A stretch of DNA of 26,968 nt from Nannocystis sp. (GTDB lineage: Bacteria > Myxococcota_A > Polyangia > Nannocystales > Nannocystaceae): positions 1 to 26,968 of the forward strand of contig JAYUXQ010000575.1 in NCBI GenBank assembly GCA_043752905.1, in the 5' to 3' direction. Positions within the stretch are counted from its first letter, which is position 1, and every line of letters starts with the position of its first letter. A program made the position numbers and the translations under genes. The notes below the pieces were generated by a model that saw nothing but the letters and a program-made list of their open reading frames with translations, was not told the origin of the DNA and made no database searches. Shown piece by piece: positions 1-15,897 of the stretch.

Positions 1-1014
1 GGCGGGCGCGGGCCAAGGGGCCGCGGCCGGCAGGGCGGGCATCGTGACGCTGGCCGGCGCCAGCGCAGGGGTCTGGCCGGCGATGAAGCGCGGGGCGTCG
101 GGGCGCACGCCGTGCGGGACCTCGACGCGCTCACCGACGGTCACCAGCTCGCCGTAGCGCAGCACGTTGACCCGCGCGAGCAGGTCGGCAAACTCCCAGG
201 TGACCTCCATGTTCTTGGCGGCCGGGAACTCGACCTTGCCGTCCTTGTCGGGGGTCGGGAGGACGCCGGTGAGGGGCCTGGTCGGCGGGCCATAGGTCCT
301 GGTGAGGGCGGCGACGGCGTCGTTGAAGTCGGTCAACGCGGCCACGTGGTCGCGGTGGGTGCGTTGATACGAGGCGTGGCGCAGGGGGTAGGGCGCGTCG
401 TCGAAGATGTAGAGCAGGCGGCCAGTCGACGGCGGGCGCGTGCGGTCGACGAGCTGGTCGCTGGTGGTCTTGGGGCAGCTAAAGCGAAGCTGGGGGTTGG
501 CCTCCCGCTTGCTTCGCTTGTTGACCCACGACGCGGCGGTCACGGCGTCCTCGCCACGGGCCCTGGCGTCCTCGACCTTGGCGCGCTCGCTCTCACGGCG
601 ACGGTCCATCATGGCGCGCACGGAGGTGTCGGCGCAGTGGAGGTCGAGCTGGCGCACGTACGCTTCGACCTCGGGGAACATCGTGGTGCCGAGCGTCGCG
701 CCGAAAGCGACGGCGCTCGGGGCCCGCGGGCCCGCGGGCGGGTCCGCGAATTCGAGGACCCACGGCTTGATCGGCTTGCTGCCGCCGACCAGGCTGGCGA
801 GGCCACGCAGGCCCTTCGCGGCGGCGCTGTCGGCACTGTCGGCACTGGCCGCGGCACTGTAGGCCGCGGCGGGCGTCTCGTCGGGCATCTCGTCGGGCAT
901 CGGGGTCGCGGGCGTCGAGCCGTTGCATGCAGCGAGCGTTGCGAGCGTTGCGAGCGTTGCGAGCGTTGCGAGCGTTGCGAGCGTTGCGAGCGTTGCGAGC
1001 GTTGCGACCGTCAT
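1..1014 (-). CDS. Lipoprotein of unknown function; the C-terminus lies beyond the window start. The signal peptide is M-T-V-(A-T-L)x8-A-A-C with lipobox LAA|C.
   Basis: The minus-strand reading from the ATG at 1014..1012 gives MTVATLATL...LAACNGSTPATPMPDEMPDETPAAAYSAAASADSA, followed by a globular region. Minus-frame third-position GC is near 100%, versus mixed for the + ORF 112..1107, so that + ORF is the antisense shadow. The lipobox sits directly after the repeat-encoded hydrophobic stretch. No stop codon occurs before position 1. Confidence 0.5.
   Translation of the reverse strand, partial: MTVATLATLATLATLATLATLATLATLAACNGSTPATPMPDEMPDETPAAAYSAAASADSADSAAAKGLRGLASLVGGSKPIKPWVLEFADPPAGPRAPSAVAFGATLGTTMFPEVEAYVRQLDLHCADTSVRAMMDRRRESERAKVEDARARGEDAVTAASWVNKRSKREANPQLRFSCPKTTSDQLVDRTRPPSTGRLLYIFDDAPYPLRHASYQRTHRDHVAALTDFNDAVAALTRTYGPPTRPLTGVLPTPDKDGKVEFPAAKNMEVTWEFADLLARVNVLRYGELVTVGERVEVPHGVRPDAPRFIAGQTPALAPASVTMPALPAAAPWPAPA
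937..1008 (-). repeat. Perfect 9-bp tandem repeat (gagcgttgc on +, gcaacgctc on -) x8. It lies in frame inside the signal-peptide coding region of the 1..1014 lipoprotein and encodes (Ala-Thr-Leu)x8.
   Basis: Eight identical 9-mers counted directly in the sequence. A 9-bp unit preserves the reading frame. The array is flanked by the ATG and by the lipobox codons gct-gca-tgc. Confidence 0.9.
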
Positions 1015-2680: not shown

Positions 2681-3184
2681 TCAGCTGCGGCCCAGCATGA
2701 TCCGCGCGCCGGCTATGATCTGCTTGAGCTCGGGATCGGTGACAGCGTCGAGCGCCTCGCGGGTCGCGGCATCGGGCTCCGCGGACAGGCGCGGGGGGGG
2801 CAAAGGAGCCGGTCTCGGGGTCTCCGGGAGCACGCGGCCGGCGACCGGCGGGACGTCACCCAGGCGGAGCTTGAGGGTTCGCAAGCGGGACAGGGGTGCG
2901 AGCGTGGCGAGCTTGCGCAGCAGGTCCTGGCGCATGTACGTCAGTTCGTGTAGCCACTGGCTGTCATGCACGTGCACGACCAGGGTGTCGCCCGCGATGG
3001 CCGCCGGCCAGGTGTGGGCCTCGAGCCCTGCACCGGCGATGCGCGGCCAGACCAGGCGGACCTGCATGAGCCGGATCGTTTCGTCGCCGATGTGGCGACG
3101 CACGAGATCCCACAGCGTCGCGGCGAGCGGCGAGGGATCCGGGACGCGGGCGCGGGCGCGGGCCATGTCCGGCGAATCTGCCAC
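2681..3184 (-). CDS. DciA/DUF721-like protein with a Pro-rich C-terminal extension.
   Basis: The motif W-P-R-I-A-G-...-HTWPAAIAGDTLVVHVHDSQWLHELTYMRQDLLRKL matches the DUF721 core (W..G..l..hT.P..i..g.L.V.V.s.W..EL......l..kL). The minus-strand ORF has natural composition. The + ORF 2697..3473 is a Ser/Arg-rich shadow. Confidence 0.45.
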   Translation of the reverse strand: MADSPDMARARARVPDPSPLAATLWDLVRRHIGDETIRLMQVRLVWPRIAGAGLEAHTWPAAIAGDTLVVHVHDSQWLHELTYMRQDLLRKLATLAPLSRLRTLKLRLGDVPPVAGRVLPETPRPAPLPPPRLSAEPDAATREALDAVTDPELKQIIAGARIMLGRS

Positions 3185-3630
3185 ATCCTGGCCACGCTCG
3201 CGCTGGCGAGCCCGGGGGCCTGCACGAGCCAGGTGGGGTGGCAGCGGGACGCTCGGCGGGCGTGCACGCCAGCGGACCCGCCACGCGTGTGCCTGCTCGC
3301 CGGGCCTGACGCGCAGCAGGTGGTCCGCGTCGGCGGCGCGACGCTCGTGCCCGGCGAATGCGCCAGGGGACCCGATGCGCGGGGCGGACGGGTCGAGGTC
3401 GAGGTCCGCGACGGACGTAGCGGTCGGGACAGCGTGCGCAGGGTCCGCGTGCGGCCGGGGCAGACGGCGATGATCTCCGCGGTCGACGGGGACGTCGTCA
3501 TGCAGGAGCGGCGCAGCTGCGCGCGCGAAGGCGCGTGAGCTGCACGCGTAGCTGCCTGTACGAGGGGACAGGTCCGATCGGACAGGGCCCCGGGGGCATG
3601 TGCGAACGGTCAGGTCGGGTCCGACGATCG

Positions 3631-3755
3631 CGGGTCGATCACGGCGGGTGGATCATTGCGGGTGGATCATCGCGGGTGGTTCATCGCGGGTGGTTCATCG
3701 CGGGTGGATCATCGCGGGTGGTTCATTGCGGGTGGTTCATTGCGGGTGGTCATCG
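3631..3755. repeat. Tandem array of about 9 copies of a 14-bp unit (cgggtggWtcatYg). It begins at the stop codon of the 3750..5249 gene and extends into that gene's 3' flank.
   Basis: Units at 3645, 3659, 3673, 3687, 3701, 3715, 3729 and 3743, with a 13-nt last copy and a degenerate copy at 3631. The TGA stop of the minus gene (tca at 3750..3752 on +) lies inside the last unit. Period 14 is not a multiple of 3, and the + ORFs 3600..3914 and 3656..3841 simply translate the repeat. Confidence 0.9.
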
Positions 3756-5249
3756 CGGCAGCAGGCGGGCGTCGCGGGCCGCGAGGGCGAAGGCGCGGCG
3801 GATGGCGTCGTCGCCGATCGGCGGGCGCCCGGTGGCGGTGACCCGCAGGCGCAGGGTTGCGAGACTCTCGTCGTCGACGCGGGCCAGCAGGTCCTGCAAG
3901 AGACCGACGCGTAGGGCCTGGCCCTGGCCGGGGTCGGCGCCAGCGAGCTCGCGACGCAGGAGGGTCCGCGCGGCGTCGGGGCGGTCGCGTAGCAGCAGCG
4001 CGGCGCGGGCGAGCGCGTGCTTGCGGGTCAGGCCCTCGTGGGCGACGGCGGTGGCGAGCCAGCCGGCGGCCAGGGTGGCGACGGCCTGGTCTTCAGGCCA
4101 GGTCAGGGGGACCCGCGGGGGCAGGCTGCGGGCGCCCTGTTCGGGCGGTGGAGGCGTGAGCGCGCGGGTCTCGTCGACGCGGCGCTCGAGCAGTGCGGCG
4201 TACTCGAGCAGGTCGCCGTCGGCGAGGCGGGCCCGGAGGAGCTCGGCGACCGGGGCGACGCCGAAGCCGCCGGGCTGCTCGCCGGCGAGAAACAGGGCGC
4301 GTTGAAAGGTGAGCTCGACGAAGCGGTGCTCGAGCAGGCGGTCGAATTCGTGGAGGAGGGGCAGGAGGTCGGCGGGGGTCCCGGTCGCGCCGGCGCGGGC
4401 GAGGCGTTCGGCGACGCCGCTGCCTTGCAGGTGCCTGCGGGTGCGCTGGTGTTCGACGGCGAGCAAGGCGTCGTCGGCGAGGTGAGGGCTGCGCTCGAGG
4501 GCGATGACGGTGCGCAGGAGCTGGGCCTCGGTGCTGGCGAACAGGCCCTCGAGTCCGGTGACGCGGCGTTGCCAGTACATGCGACACAGCTCGCGACCGA
4601 AGTGCAGGAAGCGACCGGCGAGCACGCGCGCGAACGGGGGGAGTGGTTCCTGGCCGGGCGTGGTCGCGAGGCCGAGCTGGAGCAGGGCCTCGTGGTGCAC
4701 GCGCGCGAGGTAGGCGGCCGCACGGGTGCGCTGGTCCTGCGAGACGCCGCTGGCGGTCAGCTGCACGATCGCCAGCTGCACGCTGGCGAGCACGGCGTCG
4801 GTGACCGGGCTGACGGTGGCGGTGACCGGGTCGGGGAGCTCGGGCGGGGCGGGGGACTGCGCGCGCTCGATCGCCACGAGGCGCGCGAGGCCGGCGAGAT
4901 CGGGGAGATCGGGGGAGGCGGCGAGGCGCGGGAGCAGGGCCGCGGCTGCGGCCGGGGAGTCGGCCATCAGCAGGGCGTGGCGCAGCACGGCCGGGCTGGC
5001 GGCGGTCTCGGGGCACAGCTCGAGCAGGACCGCGGCGTCCGGCGGGTGCACGGCGGCGGCGGTGGCGAGTTGATCGCAGGTCTCGATCACGGACGGCGAG
5101 GCGGCGGTGGTCGGCGCCGCGGCGGGCTCGGGCGCGGCGGCCTGATGTTTGGCGAGCGGCTCGGGCAGGCCGGTCGGATCGGGCTCGCCGCCGCAGCCGT
5201 GCAGGCAGGCGAGGGCGAGGGCGAGGCGAGGGAGGCGGTGCATGGGCAT
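3750..5249 (-). CDS. Secreted protein, probably a lipoprotein, of unknown function; Ala/Leu-rich and helical in character.
   Basis: From the ATG at 5249 the protein reads MPMHRLPRLALALACLHGCGG, a signal peptide with a lipobox-like LHG|C (alternatively ALA|C). The track's GTG at 5261 is followed by a rare ATA codon. Composition is natural on the minus strand, and the + ORF 4017..5519 is a Gly/Glu/Ala shadow. The last sense codon lies 11 nt upstream of the PilZ gene stop, so the two may be co-transcribed. Confidence 0.55.
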   Translation of the reverse strand: MPMHRLPRLALALACLHGCGGEPDPTGLPEPLAKHQAAAPEPAAAPTTAASPSVIETCDQLATAAAVHPPDAAVLLELCPETAASPAVLRHALLMADSPAAAAALLPRLAASPDLPDLAGLARLVAIERAQSPAPPELPDPVTATVSPVTDAVLASVQLAIVQLTASGVSQDQRTRAAAYLARVHHEALLQLGLATTPGQEPLPPFARVLAGRFLHFGRELCRMYWQRRVTGLEGLFASTEAQLLRTVIALERSPHLADDALLAVEHQRTRRHLQGSGVAERLARAGATGTPADLLPLLHEFDRLLEHRFVELTFQRALFLAGEQPGGFGVAPVAELLRARLADGDLLEYAALLERRVDETRALTPPPPEQGARSLPPRVPLTWPEDQAVATLAAGWLATAVAHEGLTRKHALARAALLLRDRPDAARTLLRRELAGADPGQGQALRVGLLQDLLARVDDESLATLRLRVTATGRPPIGDDAIRRAFALAARDARLLPR

Positions 5250-12964: not shown

Positions 12965-13987
12965 TCAGGCGCCGGACGTGTCCGAAGGGACATGTCCGGA
13001 GGGACCTGGCACTTCGCGCAGGTCGGTGAGCAGGTCGGTGAGAAGGTGTTCGAGCCAGCCGGCGAACCCGGGATCGACGAAGAGGCGGTGGAGGTGGTGC
13101 TCCATCTCCGTCGTCAACGGGGCGCGCCAGGCGTCGGCGAGGCCGGTGCCGGCGAGCAGCGCACCGACGGTGGTCTGCTGCAGCTCGTCGACGAGGCTCT
13201 GCAGGACGACGGTGGCCTCGACGGGGAGGCGGTCCCAGCGGGCGACGGCGGTCGCGGCGGCGTGGAGGTCGGCGACGAGGTGGTGCGGGTCGAGCTTGCG
13301 ACGCTCGGCGAGGAACACGGACTCGGGCAGGCCGAGGATCGAGCCGACGGCGTCGCCGCGCCACGAGGCCATGTCGCTGGCGAAGCGGGGGTCGGAGGCC
13401 CGCTCGACGATCATGTCGATCGCGCGGCCGAGCGCGCCGTCGACGAAGCTGCGCACGCGGTCCTCGAGCTGGCGCTCGACCTCGGCGCCGACGGCCGAGG
13501 CGACGCCCTTGGCGACGCCCATGAGCTTCGAGCGGATGCCGGCGCCGGGGATCCAGGCGGTGTCGGGCATGGCGGATCGCAGGCGCGTCGAGAAGTCGAG
13601 GAGGGTGGTGTGGAGGACCGTCCTGACCAGGGTGCGCATGGCGACGTGGTCGACCGCGGCGCGCACGATCTCGCGGCCGGGGGTGAAGGGCCGACGCAGC
13701 GCGGTCTGCAGGACCCGCACGAGCTCGGGCGGGAGGCGCTCGGCCAGAGGACCGGGGCGGGCGGTCGCGCGGCGCTGTCGCTCGGACACCATGGCGGCGA
13801 CGCGATCGGGCGCGGCCGCGAGCACGCTGGCGCGTAGACCGGCCACGAACGCGGGCACGATGCGGGTCGGGTCGATGAACTCGCGGACGGGCGTGGCGAG
13901 GACGAGGTCGAGGAGGACCTGCGCGAGCGCGGTCGCGTGCTCGGGCTGGTCGCGCAGGCGCACGAGGACGGCGGTGGCGGTCGGCAC
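12965..13987 (-). CDS. Hypothetical protein of about 340 aa with no recognised domain.
   Basis: Minus-strand ORF with natural composition; the + ORFs 12978..14000 and 12992..13837 are Ser/Arg- or Gly/Glu-rich shadows. The first codons of the track ORF include rare TAT and AGG, so I place the start at the GTG at 13987, preceded by AGGG with a 5-nt spacer. The gene is convergent with the AKR gene, with stops 6 bp apart. Confidence 0.5.
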   Translation of the reverse strand: MPTATAVLVRLRDQPEHATALAQVLLDLVLATPVREFIDPTRIVPAFVAGLRASVLAAAPDRVAAMVSERQRRATARPGPLAERLPPELVRVLQTALRRPFTPGREIVRAAVDHVAMRTLVRTVLHTTLLDFSTRLRSAMPDTAWIPGAGIRSKLMGVAKGVASAVGAEVERQLEDRVRSFVDGALGRAIDMIVERASDPRFASDMASWRGDAVGSILGLPESVFLAERRKLDPHHLVADLHAAATAVARWDRLPVEATVVLQSLVDELQQTTVGALLAGTGLADAWRAPLTTEMEHHLHRLFVDPGFAGWLEHLLTDLLTDLREVPGPSGHVPSDTSGA

Positions 13988-14951: not shown

Positions 14952-15776
14952 ATGCGTAGCCGCAACCTCGAGATCGCCAGCCCGTGTCACGAGTCCTGGG
15001 AAGCGATGGCGGGGGCGGGGGCGCGGCGCTTTTGCGGGGTCTGTCAAAAGGACGTGCACGACCTTTCGGCGATGGCGCAGGCCGAGGCGCAGGCGCTGCT
15101 GGCCGAACAGAGCGGGGCGTCGCTGTGCGTGCGCTACACGGCCGAGTCCGACGGCACGCTGCGCTTTCGTGACCTGGTGCCGCGCGCGAGCCTCACGCGC
15201 AAGATCGTGCAGGCCGCGTTCGCGGCGTCGATGCTGGCGGCCTGCACCCCGCTGGCGGACGGCCCGGTGGTCCAGGACCTCGGCGCATCGATCCTCGAGT
15301 CGATCCGCGAGGACACGGTGCCGACGCCCGACGGCGGCTGTGACTACACGACCGGGCCGTTCACGACCTTTCATTTGCCGCCTGGCCACGCGTTCTGCAC
15401 GGACACCGGCCATGTGACGCCGACGGTGGTTCCGGTCTCGTTCGGGACGCTCGGCGCCGGCGAGGAGGAGCCGCCGCCGGACCCGCCGTTGGATCCGGTG
15501 CCGTGGATCGATCCCGACGCGGTGCCGCCGACGATGGGTCAGGCGATGGCCATGCCCGAGCCCGTGGACCCCTTCGTGCCGGTCGTGCCAGTCGAGCCGG
15601 TCGTGCCCTGCGACGGCGGGCCCGCCCTCGACCCGCGGCCCCCTGCGGTCGACCCCGAGCCGAACGCGACGCCGGTCAAGGGTCGGCTCAAGGTCCGCCC
15701 TGACAAGGTGAAGCACCCGCCCGAGCCGAAGCCCATGCGCACGATGGGCGTGATAATACCCGTAGACGACCTGTAG
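14952..15776 (+). CDS. Paralogue B of the same family (Cys/His N-domain, internal LAAC segment, Pro-rich tail).
   Basis: See paralogue A. The tail contains TMGQ and TMGV motifs. The last codons (GTA GAC GAC CTG TAG) already match the downstream 14-bp repeat unit. Confidence 0.6.
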   Translation: MRSRNLEIASPCHESWEAMAGAGARRFCGVCQKDVHDLSAMAQAEAQALLAEQSGASLCVRYTAESDGTLRFRDLVPRASLTRKIVQAAFAASMLAACTPLADGPVVQDLGASILESIREDTVPTPDGGCDYTTGPFTTFHLPPGHAFCTDTGHVTPTVVPVSFGTLGAGEEEPPPDPPLDPVPWIDPDAVPPTMGQAMAMPEPVDPFVPVVPVEPVVPCDGGPALDPRPPAVDPEPNATPVKGRLKVRPDKVKHPPEPKPMRTMGVIIPVDDL

Positions 15777-15897
15777 GCGCGGGTCGCGGGCGACCTGTTC
15801 TAAACGACCTGTCCCGGGCGACCTGTCCCGGGCGACCTGTCCTAAACGACCTGTCCTAAACGACCTGTCCCGGACGACCTGTCGCCCGGGACAGGTG
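15767..15897. repeat. Tandem array of about 8 copies of a 14-bp unit in two alternating variants (cgacctgtcccggg and cgacctgtcctaaa). It begins at the stop codon of paralogue B and ends in a hairpin (cctgt-cgcccggg-acagg).
   Basis: Units at 15791, 15805, 15819, 15833, 15847 and 15861, with a terminal partial unit at 15875. A degenerate copy (cgacctgtag) at 15767..15776 contains the TAG stop codon. The array fills the gap between the convergent genes 14952..15776 (+) and 15909..16808 (-). Each ccc-ggg unit is an internal palindrome. Confidence 0.9.

Follow-up and report, generated by a model that had tools for sequence, protein, structure and literature searches.

Introduction

Several classes of short repeats have been described in bacterial genomes. 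The intergenic VNTRs of MLVA schemes consist of short, non-coding head-to-tail units, vary in copy number and unit order, and change by slipped-strand mispairing. CRISPR arrays are composed of repeats of 23–50 bp, which are split by unique spacers of similar length. Mycobacterial interspersed repetitive units (MIRU), reportedly described by Supply et al. in 1997, occur at many loci inside operons and have units of about 40–100 bp with in-frame ORFs, and in Mycobacterium these small ORFs overlap the flanking stop and start codons. REPs are imperfect palindromes of 20–40 nt, often of alternating orientation and linked to RAYT transposases, and are said to lie close to stop codons (an observation of 2015 ascribed to Liang, Rudd and Deutscher). 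REP/BIME sequences lie outside genes in large numbers, both inside operons and at the 3′ ends of genes (PMC2817692). The closest report that we found concerns the G-rich heptamers GGGNATC of Xanthomonas and Nostoc, which occur genome-wide in variable unit number and are over-represented between aligned ORFs, where they prefer sites at most 50 bp away from a stop codon (Rehm et al. 2015, PMC4692102).

Here we analyse a whole MAG contig of 26,968 bp and about 72% GC (in the following, the window), whose protein homologues are annotated as Nannocystis or Nannocystaceae. An initial annotation of this DNA had pointed out two arrays with a period of 14 bp that abut stop codons, and both are real. 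Array 1 (3627..3758, − strand) is, by all sequence comparisons made here, a young, species-specific minisatellite at a single locus. Array 2 (15769..15896, + strand) is instead an ordinary member of an old, dispersed and positionally conserved family with the core GAC(C/A)TGTCC.

Like the VNTRs of MLVA, array 1 has short non-coding units in head-to-tail order, and their number and order vary; it differs from them in that its unit includes the stop codon and the last codons of the upstream gene, and in being in register with a conserved periodic element. The family is MIRU-like in being dispersed, intergenic and gene-oriented, in overlapping flanking stop and start codons, and in its variable copy number. 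In contrast to MIRU, its units have 14 nt, which is not a multiple of 3, and are made of a conserved core of 8–9 nt and a free spacer. Array 1 itself shares only an ATGA overlap with MIRU, as it lies in a convergent gap and its unit has 14 bp and occurs at no other locus examined. A likeness to REP/BIME is seen in the abundance of the family, in its placement at 3′ ends of genes and in the palindromic GGACATGTCC-N4 variant of the family, in which adjacent units form hairpins (at 12972–13012 and at the end of array 2) and which is concentrated in convergent gaps. The family repeats are nevertheless direct and strictly 14-nt periodic and their common core ACCTGTCC is not palindromic, while array 1 is no REP/BIME element, with neither a palindrome nor a stable fold of its sense RNA (z = +0.65). 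The GGGNATC heptamers have 7-nt units, are G-rich in the sense strand and form G4, whereas the Nannocystis arrays, with their 14-nt units and a C-rich sense strand, start base-exact on the stop codon. As in rut sites, array 1 is C-rich, G-poor and unstructured for at least about 80 nt past the stop codon and is followed by hairpins; known rut sites differ in that they lack a defined core and an exact tandem structure, and Rho dependence is putative here. To our knowledge, no known bacterial repeat class (REP, MIRU, ERIC, G4 heptamers) combines the features of the family, namely purifying selection on the core, a place kept across species, gene orientation and base-exact phasing to the stop codon.

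Genomic context of the arrays

Array 1 follows a gene for a protein of 499 aa (3750..5249, − strand) with a lipoprotein-like N-terminus (LALALACLHGCGG) and the C-terminus ...LLPR*, which is kept in the orthologues. About 460 bp from the array lies dciA (2681..3166, − strand), assigned by the PF05258 (DUF721/DciA) match of the identical product in the same-species contigs L001/L254. The array does separate these two genes, as had been proposed, but a small ORF on the + strand (3287..3538) also intervenes, as indicated by frame plot, gene call and tblastn. This ORF shows the right codon-position GC pattern and is conserved at the protein level in relatives (tblastn 2e-39 and 3e-29); its product has 83 aa as called in L001, and the corresponding gene in L264–L267 encodes 116–138 aa. 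Since the small ORF lies between array 1 and dciA, the array occupies a convergent gap of 211 bp, in which it lies about 90 nt from the stop codon of the small ORF and 0 nt from that of the 499-aa gene. Array 2 likewise sits in a convergent gap. An inverted repeat (GCAGCTGCGCGCGC / GCACGCGTAGCTGC, 14 nt, 86% complementary) at 3513..3555 spans the stop codon of the small ORF and is a candidate hairpin or pause site.

The small ORF is conserved from the window MAG to Pseudenhygromyxa, although it was not called in some assemblies, and its orthologues (L264 11776–12162, L265 11574–11990) are arranged head-to-head with dciA. Pfam domains were absent from the 499-aa protein, the small ORF product and the paralogues A and B, which are 77% identical over 153 aa. 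The window contains further genes typical of myxobacteria, encoding a TPR Ser/Thr kinase, a PilZ protein, a DUF4215 protein and an MVP-like protein.

Array 1 starts within a stop codon

Array 1 had been described as about nine copies of a 14-bp unit, and TRF gave 9.5 copies with 89% matches, 0 indels and a score of 187 at period 14 (208 at period 42). The highest score among 30 dinucleotide-preserving shuffles of the window was 75. A listing of the units in register showed that the unit reads ACCACCCGCRATGA in gene sense (− strand), with the variants A(A/T)CCACCCGC(G/A)ATG, and GCGGGTGGWTCATY on the + strand. The TGA of the 499-aa gene (3750..3752; TCA on the + strand) lies within the gene-nearest unit, just as first reported. 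This unit, the first in gene sense, has 13 nt and is thus one base short, and the A of the TGA is also part of its core ACCACCCG. Nine of the 14 bases of the unit equal the end of the coding sequence, CCG CGA TGA. The units abut and spacers are absent, which rules out a CRISPR array and agrees with the earlier assignment as a minisatellite. Head-to-tail units beyond chance, together with a copy number that differs among close relatives in short-read data, place array 1 among VNTRs.

In gene sense, array 1 contains 44% C and 19.5% G over 123 nt (C/G ratio 2.25), and the predicted RNA folds no better than shuffled sequences (z = +0.65), that is, it is unstructured. C exceeding G over 80 nt or more of unstructured sequence downstream of the stop codon is a rut-like composition. 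RNA of the opposite (+) strand folds modestly better than shuffles (z = −2.5). Every unit contains an ATG that overlaps the preceding TGA (ATGA), which results in eight coupled mini-ORFs of 5 codons (MNHPR*, MIHPR*, ...), and this chain starts at the stop codon of the 499-aa gene itself. The unit contains no palindrome. Scans for sigma-70 promoters and U-tract terminators around the array detected none, and the window gave no Rfam match at the gathering threshold and no tRNA match. The unit was absent from the JGI metagenomes (0 matches) and from every other locus examined.

The unit also resembles the 3′ end of 16S rRNA (GCGGGTGGATCATC versus GCGGCTGGATCACC, 12/14, + strand) and the E. coli Chi site (GCGGGTGG versus GCTGGTGG, 7/8). 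Since these resemblances, and that to the DnaA box considered below, were found post hoc and are strand-inconsistent, we regard them as coincidence.

Array 1 varies within the species and is absent from sister species

By looking up the exact protein sequence of the aldo-keto reductase (AKR) we obtained eight contigs of the same species from other samples. Array 1 has nine units in the window and ten in L001 (= L254), with identical flanks, and the order of the A/T and G/A variants differs at the distal end. Two further contigs (L002, L004) break inside the array. Copy-number variation of array 1 is therefore likely, the comparison being one of two short-read assemblies of a repeat of 130–146 bp, to which assembly error may contribute. 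Copy-number variation of array 2 is solid: three haplotypes were found across 13 independent short-read assemblies, one with seven units (window, L262, L255), one with six units (L003, L213, L256–L260) and a third with linked SNPs in the flank (L006, L002).

Orthologous loci were fetched via homologues of the 826-aa and 499-aa proteins. The C-terminus ...LLPR* is identical in orthologues with and without array 1, and the protein is thus unchanged by the array. Array 1 is absent in L009/L010, L266–L268, L269, L011, L012, L263 and L264, where the stop codon is followed by a linker of 11–26 nt or by family units. A linker of this length occupies the array 1 site in five sister lineages with 81–85% protein identity; it has 11 nt in L009, L010 and L266–L268 (81–84% identity), 23 nt in L011 and 26 nt in L269 (85% identity), the last with a single unit-like GATCACCCACCCATCG. 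The absence from all other relatives examined argues for a young expansion in a fast-evolving linker.

A dispersed family of 14-nt repeats

Array 1 is followed by a different periodic element. At 3566..3615 (− strand) the units ACCTGACC / ACATGCCC / CCCTGTCC / ACCTGTCC with 6-nt spacers, and then a partial inverted core ACAGG, form a relic, which shares its 14-nt register with array 1 and has been retained by every Nannocystis relative examined. The same core is matched in the window by array 2, by 3566–3615 and by 12976–13011. At the last site (12972..13012, + strand) GGACGTGTCC / GGACATGTCC / GGACCTGGCA follow each other with a 14-nt period; the first two units form a 12-bp hairpin (fold z = −3.9) where the convergent AKR gene meets a 340-aa gene, in their gap and overlap.

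Array 2 starts from the end of paralogue B (14943/14952..15776, + strand, 277 aa), whose TAG precedes it. The initial annotation had placed the start of a second 14-bp array at this stop codon, and TRF confirmed the array at 15783/15791–15883 (6.6 copies, score 102–153). After the CDS end ACCTGTAG there are seven units of ACCTGTCC followed by CGGGCG or TAAACG, which can also be read as CGACCTGTCC followed by CGGG or TAAA. The first full unit begins 17 nt past the TAG, and the CDS end GACGACCTGTAG is already unit-like. The last unit and an inverted copy of it form a terminal hairpin at 15863–15896 with 16-nt arms of 94% complementarity, and its fold is strong (z = −6.4 and −5.1). The stop codon of the convergent 299-aa gene (15909..16808, − strand) follows 12 nt after the hairpin.

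In every Nannocystis relative the gap that harbours array 1 in the window contains a linker and then at least 4 units of AC(C/A)TG(N)CC plus 6 nt in a strict 14-nt period. Family units occupy the same gap in N. pusilla (L263) and L264, and L012 has about 8.5 of them, while the gap in Pseudenhygromyxa (L265) has no family units. In an alignment of six sequences the cores are nearly invariant and the linker is unconserved. Among four species, 2 of 32 core columns versus 12 of 24 spacer columns are variable (p = 3e-4). Because these loci were fetched by protein and not by motif, they provide unbiased evidence of constraint on the core.

To see the family outside this gap we used pattern scans. 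A loose scan of genome contigs (CCTGYCC-N7, three times) mostly listed (CCCCTGT)n heptamers from many phyla; three of the matches listed were Nannocystis loci (RBIL2, a MAG and N. exedens DSM 71), and in these the cores are conserved and the spacers differ. A scan of metagenomes for ACCTGTCC-N6, three times (a unit also written GACCUGUCC-N5), returned at least 120 loci, about fifty of them listed at 68% GC or more. These high-GC loci were mostly selected by motif, and taxonomy was checked for two: L213 is another allele of array 2, and the HisD from L195 shares 97% identity with a protein of Nannocystis sp. Genes at the metagenome loci were called with a simple codon-usage caller of our own, which reproduces the genes of the window.

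Among the matches listed, 30 arrays have a gene of the same strand ending just upstream and 9 lie within a called gene or antisense to one (binomial p = 0.001). The A of the TGA is the first base of the core (offset −1) in 9 of the 30 high-GC arrays listed (p = 1e-5 even when 5% per position is allowed), and 15 of these 30 start within −1..+3 nt of the stop codon. None of 13 low-GC control loci from the same scan started within 3 nt of a stop codon (Fisher p = 0.0013). The downstream neighbour of the high-GC arrays listed is co-directional in 19 cases and convergent in 9, and in several co-directional cases the next start lies in CCATG or ACATG, in register after the last unit. SD-like motifs precede 2 of 14 array-preceded genes and 70 of 240 others (p = 0.36).

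In 402 kb of high-GC sequence we found 28 further arrays (at least 2 cores) outside the pattern selection, where about 0.02 are expected by chance, and these include more −1 anchors. By our tally, convergent gaps harbour 10 of 11 arrays with the palindromic core GGACATGTCC and 9 of 28 arrays with ACCTGTCC (Fisher p = 0.0012). Adjacent palindromic cores can pair to a stem of 10–12 bp with a 4-nt loop, and such a stem-loop (10 + 4) offers a natural origin for the 14-nt period. The family pattern gave 0 matches in viral contigs and three composition-matched controls gave 1, 0 and 0, too few to gauge enrichment. A KOPS- or Chi-like, replication-oriented motif is rejected for the family arrays, since a single stretch of constant GC skew holds arrays on either strand and their orientation is that of the genes. 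In literature searches on the core strings, on tandem repeats of Nannocystis and on REPs of myxobacteria, no description of these elements came up, and GGACATGTCC surfaced only as a p53 half-site. The Nannocystis family is probably new and REP/MIRU-like.

The scans also returned repeats of other kinds. In low-GC contigs (33–60% GC) perfect 14-bp arrays with the core ACCTGTCC and other spacers occur without anchoring to stop codons, such as ACCTGTCCTGGGTC, which is present in at least 8 contigs, or ACCTGTCCCTGCGA, whose arrays reach 32 units. The heptamers (CCCCTGT)n and (CCCCTGC)n were found, among the matches listed, in cyanobacteria, Planctomycetota, Chloroflexota, Gemmatimonadota, Acidobacteriota and others. 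In N. pusilla (L013 19392–19636) 45-bp repeats, each with a CCTGTCCGCAGGGACAGG hairpin, lie inside a called ORF for a 1756-aa HEAT-repeat protein, and the family core may thus also occur within coding sequence.

Other tandem arrays at stop codons

The initial annotation had also raised the question of further arrays abutting stop codons, and many exist in this lineage. According to the gene caller, about 5 of 12 arrays that belong neither to the family nor to triplet repeats overlap a stop codon, compared to a rough expectation of 5–10% for uniform placement; array 1 itself is one of them. In L012 (6864–6980) an 11-bp unit is present ten times and is identical to the final 11 nt of the CDS, TGA included. 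The array (GTACTGA)n in L166 (981–1103, 7-bp period) and a 38-bp array of ten copies in L178 (372–761) also overlap a stop codon. For an 8-bp array in L155 the gene caller indicated an overlap, but by eye the stop codon lies about 13 nt upstream. Three more non-family arrays start within 10 nt of a stop codon. A duplication that spans the stop codon leaves the protein intact and is thus tolerated by selection; since the share of stop overlaps is above that of uniform placement, there may in addition be a hot spot of mutation where genes end. In this lineage, tandem arrays have a hot spot in the first bases past stop codons. As copy number varies and many other stop-anchored arrays exist, the view of array 1 as an invariant, unique product of chance, which the initial annotation had named as its own refutation, fails.

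In L269 (318–347) a 10-bp unit present three times reaches from 6 nt after a stop codon to the ATG of the next gene.

Origin and possible role of array 1

Our preferred reading, to which we assign a probability of roughly 0.6, is that array 1 was born by slippage and is a near-neutral VNTR, the only likely effect of which concerns the length of a Rho-friendly 3′ UTR. A 14-nt segment consisting of CCG CGA TGA and the next five bases would have been duplicated in tandem, and slipped-strand mispairing would then have expanded it into array 1, inside the short linker between the stop codon and the older, conserved 14-nt-periodic element. In the first copy, the coding end of the 499-aa gene and its stop codon are intact. 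Because the first unit keeps an intact stop codon, gain or loss of units never alters the protein, and this is how an array that reaches into a stop codon can survive. The register that array 1 shares with the adjacent relic is the simplest explanation for the common 14-bp period. The two arrays, for which a common mechanism or function had been suggested, are not equivalent, as array 2 belongs to an old family and array 1 is young. Of the functions suggested at the outset (iterated binding sites, terminator, slippage hot spot), slipped-strand variation agrees with the polymorphism, slippage as the origin being our interpretation, and a terminator-like hairpin is present at array 2 but not at array 1.

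We infer that array 1 has no sequence-specific function. Its units would do no more than lengthen or shorten the 3′ UTR, about 130 nt of C-rich, unstructured RNA that is free of ribosomes and lies upstream of hairpins. As a C-rich, G-poor and unstructured composition is what Rho loading requires, the array may aid in stopping transcription, and putative Rho loading would halt it short of an antisense run into dciA and the small convergent ORF. Such a Rho-loading role is possible, judged by base composition. Taken by itself, array 1 would be a handy hypervariable strain marker and little more.

Two observations stand against near-neutrality. Array 1 and the family share the 14-nt period, the A of the TGA in the first unit and a C-rich sense strand, and because of these three common features array 1 could be a functional variant rather than a by-product. 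Moreover, with about 5 of 12 non-family arrays overlapping a stop codon against 5–10% expected, slippage plus selection may not suffice. Array 1 might therefore be a newly evolved variant of the stop-anchored family that is kept by selection, a periodic RNA element that is read just past the translation stop with, for example, one unit per Rho protomer or RNA-binding domain. Rho covers roughly 13 nt per subunit. The same period, the same −1 anchoring (TGACC...), a C/G ratio of 2.25 that is near our rough estimate of about 2 for the family (from position frequencies), and the unstructured sense RNA fit this explanation, as do the constraint on the family cores and the preference for sense orientation (30 versus 9). 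Yet the core ACCACCCG agrees with the family core GAC(C/A)TG(T/C)CC in just 4 of 8 positions and does not share the phase of the relic cores, so that array 1 resembles a family member in period, in its first unit on the stop codon and in its C-rich sense strand, but not in core. Nor is its site conserved: it is absent in all sister species and relatives examined, where the adjacent relic is kept, and was not found elsewhere. The near-identity of its units is due to recent descent, and their conservation is uninformative. We consider selection for such a variant unlikely. Still less credit is due to a ribosome relay, in which re-initiation after the 499-aa gene would proceed through the eight successive ATGA-coupled mini-ORFs. 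The chain does begin on the gene's own stop codon, co-directional family arrays often run from a stop codon to a CCATG or ACATG start in register, and MIRU repeats in Mycobacterium carry small ORFs with comparable overlaps; but the chain runs out between convergent genes, where no downstream gene is available for coupling, the ATGA is an automatic outcome of duplicating CGATGA, the family units have no ATGA, and SD-like motifs are absent, with no SD contrast between array-preceded and other genes. A relay is accordingly very improbable.

About as little speaks for an action on the opposite strand, where GGGTGG in every 14 nt might fold into a long hairpin with G-U pairs or into two-tetrad quadruplexes, either on the template strand or within the 3′ UTR of the convergent small ORF. 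The + strand RNA has z = −2.5 versus shuffles, and G-rich short repeats near stop codons are known from Xanthomonas and Nostoc (PMC4692102), but this z-score is modest, the G runs have a length of just 2–3 with an 8-nt loop, and the array lies about 90 nt from the stop codon of the small ORF compared to 0 nt from that of the 499-aa gene, which leaves this explanation with very little weight. A cluster of DnaA boxes near dciA, acting as a datA-like titration site, is hardly credible. The unit holds TGATCCACC or TGAACCACC, which in our comparison match the DnaA box TTATCCACA at 7/9 or 6/9 positions, and a replication gene is 460 bp away. By our estimate, however, a match of such quality has a chance of about 4% in any 14-mer, most units carry the poorer TGAACC variant (6/9), the window shows no GC-skew switch, the convergent ORF lies between array and dciA, and sister species with the same gene order do not have array 1; a cluster of close TTATCCACA matches is not conserved among the relatives. 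Equally implausible is that the array or its variation arose as an artefact of assembly. Tandem repeats are prone to being broken or mis-sized by short-read assemblers, and the arrays are cut off at the ends of L002, L004 and six Logan contigs, but both arrays are present with identical flanks in independent NCBI, ENA, JGI and Logan assemblies, and each haplotype of array 2 is backed by two to seven independent contigs.

A wider reading concerns the family as a whole. It could be an undescribed dispersed cis-element that acts right after the translation stop, with array 1 as a newborn variant and not as junk. Its 14-nt units, with the core GAC(C/A)TGTCC and a free spacer of 5–6 nt, would occur in roughly one array per 10 kb; the arrays would start exactly on the stop codon, the A of the TGA being the first core base, and run in sense to the next start codon, which often would lie in a core-like CCATG or ACATG in register, or to a terminal inverted-core hairpin, and the palindromic core variant would predominate at converging genes. 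Candidate roles would be Rho loading, ribosome hand-over or protection of mRNA 3′ ends. Taken together, this picture is tentative and we would not rely on it. If the family is functional, it would provide a sequence-defined handle on termination, ribosome release and re-initiation in very GC-rich genomes.

Further repeats and genes

By a lenient test, about 29% of the confidently called genes at the high-GC loci have an SD-like 4-mer upstream of any candidate start, which suggests largely SD-independent initiation in these genomes.

Coding VNTRs are also common in this lineage, as seen from an in-frame 24-bp repeat that has 5.3 copies in L010 (2684–2810) and 2.3 copies in L009 (8817–8871), with products of 371 aa and 347 aa. 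Within the window, a 9-bp tandem repeat of 8.9 copies (932–1011, 98% matches) is part of a coding region on the − strand with its ATG at 1014..1012. The product starts with MTV(ATL)8AACNGS, a lipoprotein signal peptide, the hydrophobic core of which is the tandem repeat itself and ends in the lipobox LAAC.

At 22346–24886 (+ strand) the window encodes a eukaryote-like protein of 846 aa with major-vault-protein shoulder and vault-repeat domains and an SPFH/Band 7 match, and its synteny is conserved in L009 and L012.
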